From a virus (taxonomy: Duplodnaviria; Caudoviricetes): a stretch of 64,000 bases of DNA. A program made the position numbers and the translations under genes. The stretch is taken from IMG/VR virus record IMGVR_UViG_3300012007_000009, positions 64,001 to 128,000 of that record. One strand, given 5' to 3'. Positions 108 through 27,328 of this stretch are shown here, piece after piece (the first letter of the stretch is position 1; every line of letters begins with the position of its first letter). The notes below the pieces were generated by a model. It was not told the DNA's origin. It was given only the letters and a program-made list of their open reading frames with translations, and did not search any database.

Positions 108-223
108 GTATAGAGGTTCAGTGAATTAGTGGCTTTCTTCATTGAACGACACTGAGAGACCATTTATGATGGCTCGTTTGATGCTGAAAGCCACAAAAAG
201 TATCGAACGAGCCATTTCTGTAT
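108..223 (+). ncRNA. Structured RNA with two hairpins and complementary loops (kissing loop)
   Basis: Stem 116-125/138-147 (10 bp), stem 169-185/199-215 (17 bp), loops GTGGCTTTC (129-137) and GAAAGCCAC (186-194) are exact reverse complements; weaker closing stem 108-115/216-223. All non-Watson-Crick pairs are G-U on the + strand. Confidence 0.7.
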
Positions 224-2084: not shown

Positions 2085-3214
2085 GCCTTCTCGCCGAAAT
2101 ACATGCACTTCCGGGCGAACTTCTTGTCCTGGAATGTAAGGAAAAGGCGGCCGTCGTCGGAATGCAGCATCTCAAGCACGGCGGAACCGGCATTCCTCAC
2201 CATCATGGTACTGACGTCCATCGGCAAGTCGATGGACTTTTTCGTATCCATCATCCTGACACCGGTCATGGTAATTGTTCCTGAATACCTGTCCTCGAAG
2301 CCGTACTTCATCTCGACGGTCTTCTCGTCCAGGGGAACCAGTTTCACCGGGGCAATCGGGTCCTTGTAGTTGAGGCCATACACCATGTCGATTGTCGCCA
2401 TCATGCCGATGGTGTCGAACTTCATGTACGGGGACATGCCTTCGCTGCTGCCTGTACGGAGCTTGCCTTCACCATAGGCGTAGTTGATTCCGTAAAGTTT
2501 CCCTTGTGTACGAATGCGCTTCCTCGACCAGTCGAGGTCGAACGAGCACAGGGGGTCCGTGCTGACTGTAGGCATAATCTTGAACACGTTCACCGGGACG
2601 GATATCGCGAAGTCCGGTACGTCCTTCATCGATTCCACACCTAATACCTTGATAGTAAACGGGAGGGTCGCGATGCTGACCCGGTCGTTCCCGGTCCTGA
2701 ACGACAGAGTCCCCTCGTTGCACGCAAACTCGACTGTATCGAACTCGTAGCAAGTGTCGATGATTGAAGCCATCACCATTTGTTCGACCTGAATGGTGAG
2801 GTCAGGGGAAAATCCCTCATCCATTTCGAACGGTTCCAACAAAGGAAGGCTGGCTTCGGATTCAAAGCATTCCAGGCCCTCGTTGTAGGAGGAACCGATG
2901 TACAGCCTGCCGTCAGCAACCCACAGGGCAACCAGGCCGTCCTTCACTCCCTTGTCGCAGGTGACGAAGAAGTCACTCAGTCTCACATACGCATCGCTGT
3001 CCAGGCATTCCGATTTCAGTGTAGTGTCGACCAGTGCAGTAACTCCCTTGTCGGTAGTGAGCTTCATGTAAACAAGGTCGTCCTCGTCGTGATTGACAAA
3101 CGTCTCGATGTGAACCTTGCTCTCGTCGGACTCACACGAGAATCCGATAAATGAAATTGCTTCACGGAAACCAGTCACCGTGTTGAACATAGTAAGCTTT
3201 GGCGTATTTGGCAT
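2081..3214 (-). CDS. Hypothetical protein, possibly a divergent DnaN (beta clamp)-like fold
   Basis: 377 aa, GAGG RBS. Size and segments FREAISFIGFSCESDESK and FAISVPVNVFKIM loosely recall beta-clamp repeats; function call is weak. Confidence 0.6.
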   Translation of the reverse strand: MPNTPKLTMFNTVTGFREAISFIGFSCESDESKVHIETFVNHDEDDLVYMKLTTDKGVTALVDTTLKSECLDSDAYVRLSDFFVTCDKGVKDGLVALWVADGRLYIGSSYNEGLECFESEASLPLLEPFEMDEGFSPDLTIQVEQMVMASIIDTCYEFDTVEFACNEGTLSFRTGNDRVSIATLPFTIKVLGVESMKDVPDFAISVPVNVFKIMPTVSTDPLCSFDLDWSRKRIRTQGKLYGINYAYGEGKLRTGSSEGMSPYMKFDTIGMMATIDMVYGLNYKDPIAPVKLVPLDEKTVEMKYGFEDRYSGTITMTGVRMMDTKKSIDLPMDVSTMMVRNAGSAVLEMLHSDDGRLFLTFQDKKFARKCMYFGEKA

Positions 3215-4847: not shown

Positions 4848-4855
4848 AGTTTATA
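4848..4855 (-). promoter_or_regulatory. Putative late promoter TATAAACT
   Basis: Exact motif oriented toward gene start 4815. Confidence 0.7.
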
Positions 4856-27320: not shown

Positions 27321-27328
27321 AGTTTATA
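27321..27328 (-). promoter_or_regulatory. Putative late promoter TATAAACT
   Basis: Exact motif, overlapping the upstream stop codon. Confidence 0.7.

Follow-up and report, generated by a model that had tools for sequence, protein, structure and literature searches.

An IS607-family element lacking tnpA

The window analysed here is a stretch of 64,000 nt (positions 64,001 to 128,000) of the IMG/VR virus record IMGVR_UViG_3300012007_000009, which is 160.8 kb long and estimated to be 44% complete, a size that indicates a jumbo phage. At the left edge of the window the following features were identified.

-13 to 1979, + strand: IS607-family element without tnpA, about 2 kb, mobile
1 to 64, + strand: left end of the element, which starts 13 nt before the window, with 10-bp-phased AAAATCTA-type repeats
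226 to 1965, + strand: tnpB, 579 aa, Pfam Cas12f1-like_TNB (PF07282) at 3.8e-11
1775 to 1979, + strand: omega-RNA-like scaffold, 62 predicted pairs, 11 of them compensatory
1980 to 2084, + strand: stranded 3' tail of an acidic phage gene, 34 codons, with homologues in L122 and L125

In a comparison with 13 IMG/VR loci, the homologous stretch ran from about 16 nt ahead of the window to position 1980; the element homology begins at position 1484 of locus L001, and all loci diverge right after CAACGGT. Since the flanks differ at every locus, the unit is a mobile element. Uninterrupted homologues of the split gene (L122:1930-2160 and L125:1920-2150) align across the junction, and excision of -13 to 1979 restores the reading frame. 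GG is present at both junctions (-15/-14 and 1978-1979), and the ends are of the IS607 kind, with a GG core and subterminal repeats and with neither terminal inverted repeats nor a target duplication. The right end carries inverted copies, TAGATTTT, twice; as judged from known IS607 ends, the left-end repeats are probably TnpA binding sites (PMC6188088). The interrupted acidic phage gene is cut near its C-terminus, and its upstream part now stops 16 nt into the window.

The preliminary description of this DNA, made from the letters alone, had noted a structured RNA immediately upstream of a large TnpB, and the protein of 579 aa, about 180 aa longer than is typical, agrees with the latter point. 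Besides the Pfam match, TnpB scored 1.9e-21 with NCBIfam guided_TnpB, which is under the cutoff of that model, and its C-terminal residues 450-525 match solved Cas12f/TnpB chains, so that the RuvC/TNB (zinc-ribbon) part is present at the C-terminus. A total of 1207 homologues were collected, and the clade is one of large phages, on contigs up to 455 kb. The omega-RNA was expected to come from the 3' end, and the scaffold indeed occupies this usual place: the last ~200 nt of the element form a predicted multi-helix RNA whose end coincides with that of the element, the GG core 1978-1979; a guide would run from 1980. With Rfam 15, no RAGATH-18 match was obtained for the 3' scaffold. A serine-recombinase TnpA with a MerR-type HTH was found neither in the element nor in the 160.8-kb record, and no second copy of the element was found in the available record. 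Relatives carry a tnpA of the MerR-HTH/resolvase type between the same left end and tnpB, which places the family in IS607 and makes the window copy a tnpA-less derivative.

Predicted fold of the tnpB leader

The region between the left end and tnpB, a leader of about 115 nt (108-223) directly 5' of tnpB, had been described as two hairpins with mutually complementary 9-nt loops, a 21-nt linker and a weak outer stem, and each of these parts was recovered in our analysis.

108-115 with 216-223, + strand: outer stem, weak, 8 bp with 3 G-U pairs, ending 2 nt 5' of ATG226
116-125 with 138-147, + strand: hairpin 1 stem, 10 bp with 1 G-U pair
126-137, + strand: hairpin 1 loop, 12 nt, a 3-nt spacer UUA (126-128) followed by the 9-nt strand K1 (129-137)
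148-168, + strand: linker, 21 nt
169-185 with 199-215, + strand: hairpin 2 stem, 17 bp with 2 G-U pairs
186-198, + strand: hairpin 2 loop, 13 nt, strand K2 (186-194) followed by a 4-nt A-rich spacer (195-198)
129-137 with 186-194, + strand: kissing (pseudoknot) helix of K1 and K2, 9 bp, perfect complement

The letters of K1 are GTGGCTTTC (129-137) and those of K2 are GAAAGCCAC (186-194), the two loops being 48 nt apart. Even without the loop helix, the leader reaches a minimum free energy of -44.8 kcal/mol in its nested fold, with a z of -4.26, and none of 200 shuffled sequences folded as well. In both the window family and locus L093, K1 abuts the 3' arm of hairpin 1 and has the 3-nt spacer on its 5' side, while K2 stands directly 3' of the 5' arm of hairpin 2 and is followed by four A/U-rich nucleotides. 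Hairpin 1 and the loop helix thus follow each other in the order of an H-type pseudoknot, the stems being directly adjacent, and the short A/U-rich 3' spacer of loop 2 would be placed to run along the loop helix. The arrangement thus points to a defined intramolecular fold, as far as can be judged from sequence.

The outer stem is less well defined, with two competing registers in which 108-115 pairs either with 216-223 or with 223-228, the latter including the AUG of tnpB; the registers span -2.5 to -8.8 kcal/mol. As judged by alignment A3 and its column entropies, the linker is variable in its 5' half and conserved in its 3' half (AAGAGACCAUUU), which is purine-rich, resembles a Shine-Dalgarno (SD) sequence and lies 6-9 nt ahead of AUG166/AUG169. 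With regard to riboswitches built on a three-way junction (purine or lysine type), no conserved junction nucleotides forming a ligand pocket were found: the outer stem, itself weak, adjoins both hairpins directly, and in its 5' half the linker varies as much as neutral sites do.

Two further features of this stretch were noted. A sigma-70-like match (TTGAAC, 17 nt, TATGAT) lies within the module at 142-170, and a transcript initiated there would be missing hairpin 1 as well as the 5' arm of hairpin 2. In its lower stem (168-180), hairpin 2 shares GATGGCTYGTT, at 10 of 11 nt, with a hairpin of the 3' scaffold (1905-1927), a resemblance that might hint that TnpB binds its own leader.

Covariation among homologous leaders

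Homologous modules were found by pattern scans of IMG/VR and metagenome contigs, and 38 distinct leaders were aligned (alignment A3), from which all counts of helix pairing were taken. Every module found in IMG/VR and in the metagenome contigs precedes a tnpB of this clade; a pattern scan for the module in 185,579 prokaryote genomes/species gave three matches, all of which were unrelated.

Over the 38 sequences, 99.7% of the cells of the loop-loop helix are paired, with 341 Watson-Crick cells, no G-U and a single U-U. Its outer five pairs are invariant, whereas the central four are hypervariable, each appearing in three or four Watson-Crick types, so that compensatory change is seen at four pairs and the proposed kissing interaction is upheld. 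Hairpin 1 is paired in 97.4% of cells with 4 compensatory pairs, and hairpin 2 in 96.6% with 3. Both stems and the loop helix therefore covary, and covariation as high as observed was reached in 0 of 500 shuffles; when partner columns were slid as a control, pairing dropped to 34-43%. The outer stem can be formed in the window, as the preliminary description claimed, while among the relatives it is paired in 86.7% of cells with almost no covariation, and this part of the claim holds less well beyond the window.

The strand on which the structure is selected could also be read from the alignment. The stems contain far more G-U than A-C cells (40 against 2 in hairpin 1, 70 against 1 in hairpin 2), indicating that the folded strand is the + strand and, most simply, RNA, in good agreement with the earlier suggestion of RNA-level selection. 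Two alternative structures were examined and rejected: the alternative hairpin 1 of RNAfold, for which covariation was 0.171 as compared with 0.159 in shuffles, and a 24-nt helix in which loop 1 and the adjoining 3' arm would pair with the 5' arm and loop of hairpin 2. Outside the nine kissing pairs, the 24-nt helix contains only pairs that never change or are wobbles, together with two positions at which pairing does not occur in any sequence, and a comparable extension was absent from the L093 and L112 sequences when these were read.

The motif had not been recognised at first sight, and none of the Rfam 15 covariance models matched positions 1-2600 of the window at E values up to 10; nothing relevant was found with Rfam 15 in L093, L112 and L005. 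A full-text literature search found no description of a structured 5' leader of tnpB. The original observation is thus confirmed far beyond chance, and the leader is a real RNA element, previously undescribed.

The same design in distant subfamilies

Two TnpB subfamilies, represented by L093 and L112 and about 49% identical to the window TnpB, have leaders of the same architecture written in unrelated letters. In L093 (TnpB 49% identical), the leader has no sequence similarity to that of the window, and yet hairpin 1 consists of 9 bp with a 12-nt loop of 3 nt plus UUGGUCGGC, and hairpin 2 of an interrupted 16 bp with a 13-nt loop of GCCGACCAA plus 4 nt. In L112, hairpin 1 again has a 3+9 loop, with UCGCCAUUC, and hairpin 2 has a longer loop with GAAUGGCGG, in which two nucleotides precede the kissing strand; the loop helix is made of 8 Watson-Crick pairs and 1 G-U. 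Closer relatives of the L093 type were not found in IMG/VR.

Variation of the loop core

The four central pairs of the loop helix occur in eight variants, GGCT, CGAG, GAGA, GGAT, CGTG, CGCA, AGCG and GCAA, and the core columns vary to the same degree as the part of the linker that is under no constraint. The lone mismatch between loops among the relatives is found in L030 (8531-8674; L055 is the same), where K1 carries CGTG and K2 is complementary to CGAG on a backbone identical to that of L056; this copy is either an intermediate caught in the act or a recombinant.

When core types were mapped on the tnpB tree, 18 changes were counted against 16.9 in shuffles, a random-like scatter, while on the tree of the module backbone only 12 changes were counted against 23.9, a value reached in 0 of 200 shuffles. 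The core is thus unlinked to the tnpB tree and linked to the backbone, which indicates that the module recombines as a unit relative to tnpB. The core has also switched several times inside backbone clades. L027 and L029 share one insertion site and carry different modules. Two contigs carry two copies each with different cores; in another contig, both copies share one core. No third partner for the loop 9-mers or for their 7-mers was found in the element or its flanks.

Promoter and start-codon context

The sequence surrounding the module contains putative signals for expression.

65 to 93, + strand: sigma-70-like promoter match (TTGAAG, 17 nt, TATATT) from a consensus scan, conserved in alignment A1
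96 to 103, + strand: promoter-like phage motif TATAAACT, 10 copies in the window against 0.88 expected
216 to 225, + strand: pyrimidine-rich spacer without a Shine-Dalgarno sequence

The copies of TATAAACT are located at 96-103, 4848-4855(-), 27321-27328(-), 29803, 38069(-)/38130, 46773(-)/46803, 53024(-) and 57675, with two pairs of copies divergent. The other nine all stand just upstream of a start codon, and most of these starts have a purine-rich SD-like stretch, and TATAAACT is probably a promoter element of the phage's own, of the late type. A transcript start near 108-110 is predicted from its position. The module begins 5 nt past TATAAACT, and the leader of tnpB is unusually long and structured in comparison with those of the other genes with this motif.

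The AUG of tnpB is located 10 nt 3' of hairpin 2 and is not preceded by a Shine-Dalgarno sequence. Another start codon, AUG or GUG, is placed at the 5' base of hairpin 2 in all 38 leaders (shifted upstream by one codon in L050), as well as in L093 and L112; the sole SD-like sequence of the window family, AAGAGA, precedes this buried codon. Relative to tnpB, the upstream codon is in frame in 14 leaders, in +1 in 23 and in +2 in 1. The short upstream ORF of L093 stops within loop 2. A conserved leader peptide or an N-terminal extension of TnpB starting at AUG169 was considered and rejected, because the frame is not conserved. The terminator scan called none at hairpin 2, which has a 13-nt loop and is followed by UUUCUGUAU in the window and by UUUCCUUUUUU in the L093 leader.

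Genes in front of tnpB in related elements

The position taken by the module is filled in a different way in relatives that are autonomous. Two loci, L004 and L005, encode TnpBs of equal length and 86-87% identity to that of the window, and carry in the same slot a small ORF and a serine-recombinase tnpA, for which a resolvase domain (5.3e-23) and a MerR domain were identified. A tnpA of the MerR-HTH/resolvase type is also present in the slot of L091, L095, L096 and L117. In L005, L091, L096 and L117, tnpA and tnpB overlap, abut or are at most 1 nt apart (within 1 nt in L005), and in L095 a gap of 11 nt separates the two. The module is absent from the autonomous L004, L005 and L091 and from the tnpB-only L113 and L119, the last two having a short plain leader instead. 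The module is restricted to copies without tnpA. Since the autonomous copies lack it and a normal 3' scaffold is present in the window element, the module is not needed by the nuclease itself.

Some additional features were observed in these slots. L004 has two extra ORFs of 121 and 71 aa between tnpA and tnpB (2480-3008). A conserved ORF of 63-64 aa (MKRMKVVRV...), with no Pfam match, precedes tnpA in L005 (182-373), L004 (1692-1886) and L091 (144-335). L119, a distant tnpB-only relative (35% identity), carries six tandem AACCTATAAAA repeats at its left end (180-352) and no hairpin module. In L094, of which the TnpB is 46% identical, the slot is taken by an ORF (681-842) with weak likeness to RHH proteins (Pfam RHH_1, E 0.009), containing an in-frame TGA and overlapping tnpB through ATGA; the in-frame TGA could be due to recoding, to error or to decay.

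A leader that may gate TnpB expression in cis

Taking these results together, we propose that the region is a cis-acting, pseudoknotted 5' leader of the tnpB mRNA that gates the expression of TnpB, a reading to which we assign a probability of about one in two. Among the options named in the preliminary description, a translational switch would fit the context best. In autonomous relatives tnpB overlaps, abuts or closely follows tnpA, and in L094 it overlaps the upstream ORF through ATGA, from which translation of tnpB appears to depend on upstream translation (compare PMC10666635). The module would then replace the translational coupling between tnpA and tnpB. In its folded state the leader would hide the entry AUG and keep TnpB low; a ribosome, a protein or a partner RNA would open the fold, and translation through hairpin 2 would then expose, or run into, the start of tnpB. 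Attenuation and stabilisation may be regarded as variants of the same gating idea.

Four points stand against the gating leader. The frame of the upstream AUG varies, which is a misfit to simple termination-reinitiation in every copy, and L113 and L119 manage with a short plain leader. A purely structural role in cis does not need a core as variable as a free linker, and the U-rich stretch after hairpin 2 could equally belong to an attenuator or mark where a small RNA ends.

The last two of these points lead to the main alternative, doubtful in our estimation, that the region specifies a discrete small RNA of about 110 nt, ended or processed after hairpin 2, which acts in trans through its loops. 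Such an RNA might pair hand in hand with other copies, forming dimers or rings, or else with same-type leaders, and the 4-bp core would then act as an identity code by which co-resident elements control copy number or exclude one another. It would account for a core that is as variable as the unconstrained linker and yet always complementary, by Watson-Crick pairs only and with many swaps of the transversion type, and for the persistence of eight core types that follow the module backbone and not the tnpB tree; the two contigs that each hold two different-core copies and the U-rich stretch 3' of hairpin 2 (UUUCCUUUUUU in L093) are in accord with it. The contig with two same-core copies is not, and the conserved asymmetry of the loops (3 nt on the 5' side of loop 1, 4 nt on the 3' side of loop 2) appears better suited to an intramolecular pseudoknot, while a 13-nt loop followed by an interrupted U-tract is a misfit to a standard terminator, for which a GC-rich stem, a loop of 3-8 nt and an unbroken U-tract directly behind the stem are expected, and the scan called no terminator. 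The more general notion that the 4-bp core is an RNA identity code, by which a leader recognises its own partner loop only, in cis or in copies of the same type, seems to us unlikely. If it were true, TnpB elements co-resident in one phage would be regulated, or assembled into higher-order RNA, independently, and this would amount to an incompatibility-group system for RNA-guided nuclease elements together with a set of orthogonal kissing pairs.

Other functions for a structured RNA at this position were weighed against the same data. TnpB and phage genes often have small ribozymes and RAGATH motifs as neighbours, and together with the compact pseudoknotted fold and the insertion of the element in a transcribed gene this association would favour a new self-cleaving or processing RNA, by which the tnpB message is released from transcripts that read through the interrupted gene. 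We regard this as improbable, as no Rfam ribozyme family was matched, the three subfamilies have few conserved unpaired nucleotides in common and the linker varies freely in its 5' half. A tracr-like second RNA subunit or cofactor of the large TnpB, the idea put forward in the preliminary description, would be in keeping with the constant adjoining of the leader to this TnpB clade, with the extra length of the protein (about 180 aa) and with the likeness of the lower stem of hairpin 2 to the penultimate hairpin in the 3' scaffold, which in the window family extends to 10 of 11 nt of the 5' arm. That likeness is weak in L093, absent in L112 and about what chance gives, and between the leader and either the 3' scaffold or the flanks no complementarity is conserved beyond stretches of chance length. 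The leader stands 5' of tnpB, and the module is missing from L004, L005, L091, L113 and L119; the presence among these of autonomous elements with TnpBs of equal length and 86-87% identity, and the lack of a third partner for the loop 9-mers, speak against a scaffold part, which we therefore hold to be quite improbable. Least probable is a structure of single-stranded DNA used in transposition or replication, such as an end hairpin of the IS200/IS605 style. The hairpins are close to the left end of a TnpB element and a strictly Watson-Crick loop helix would suit DNA too, but the serine recombinase of IS607 uses double-stranded DNA, autonomous copies are without such hairpins, the stems carry 110 G-U against 3 A-C cells, and the module starts about 120 nt inside the end, directly after the promoter.

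Significance and comparison with known systems

TnpB elements are the ancestors of Cas12 and are under development as compact genome editors, and in phages they act as homing elements; to our knowledge very little is known of how TnpB expression is controlled, especially in phages. The leader, found exactly where the transposase gene has been lost, offers a testable handle on how a nuclease element without tnpA sets its dose. It is a strongly supported, uncatalogued RNA fold that accompanies a TnpB clade very abundant in large phages. RNA engineering could draw on its loop helix, of which at least eight natural 9-bp versions, mutually orthogonal, exist on a single scaffold, and the core, with its fast turnover that is compensated every time, is a clean example from nature of compensatory evolution.

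Structured RNAs hitherto described for TnpB elements include the omega-RNA (reRNA) of IS607 TnpB, including RNAs derived from RAGATH-18 (PMC11061315), and the group I intron that is fused to IS605 or IS607 TnpB elements in IStrons (10.1101/2023.11.20.567912). The leader resembles the omega-RNA in being a structured RNA of the same element, but the omega-RNA is at the 3' end and abuts the guide, whereas the leader is at the opposite end, has no guide and coexists with the 3' scaffold of its own element. With IStrons it shares the position of a structured RNA in the 5' part of a TnpB element inserted in a gene; unlike IStrons, it gave no group I intron match in Rfam 15, and with about 115 nt it is too small for an intron core.

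In the interlocking loops of phi29 pRNA and in the antisense kissing loops of plasmids ColE1 and R1, the loop sequence sets the specificity, and as in the leader covariation preserves the complementarity of the loops although their letters change from one relative to another. The loops of phi29 pRNA pair between molecules in DNA packaging and those of ColE1 and R1 belong to two separate RNAs, whereas the leader has both loops in one RNA, located by a TnpB gene. Hairpins that sequester the ribosome-binding site are found in the tnpA leader of IS200 and in T4 homing-endonuclease genes with late promoters, and by analogy the gene of a selfish element may here too be kept low by the structure of its leader. 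The T4 late-promoter case is also resembled in that the promoter motif of the leader is common to nine other genes of the window and stands directly before the structure. In IS200 and T4, single hairpins cover the SD sequence; in the leader no SD precedes tnpB, an AUG is buried in hairpin 2 and a loop-loop helix is added.

Further close parallels are the H-type pseudoknots that act as translational operators in the 5' leaders of phage T4 gene 32 and of the E. coli rpsO and alpha-operon mRNAs. The leader differs from these operators in that the second strand of its pseudoknot is the loop of a second long hairpin and that its 4-bp core is hypervariable. It agrees with them in having the pseudoknot just 5' of a start codon and loop lengths suited to crossing the grooves, and by analogy a role in setting the level of translation would be likely for the leader as well.
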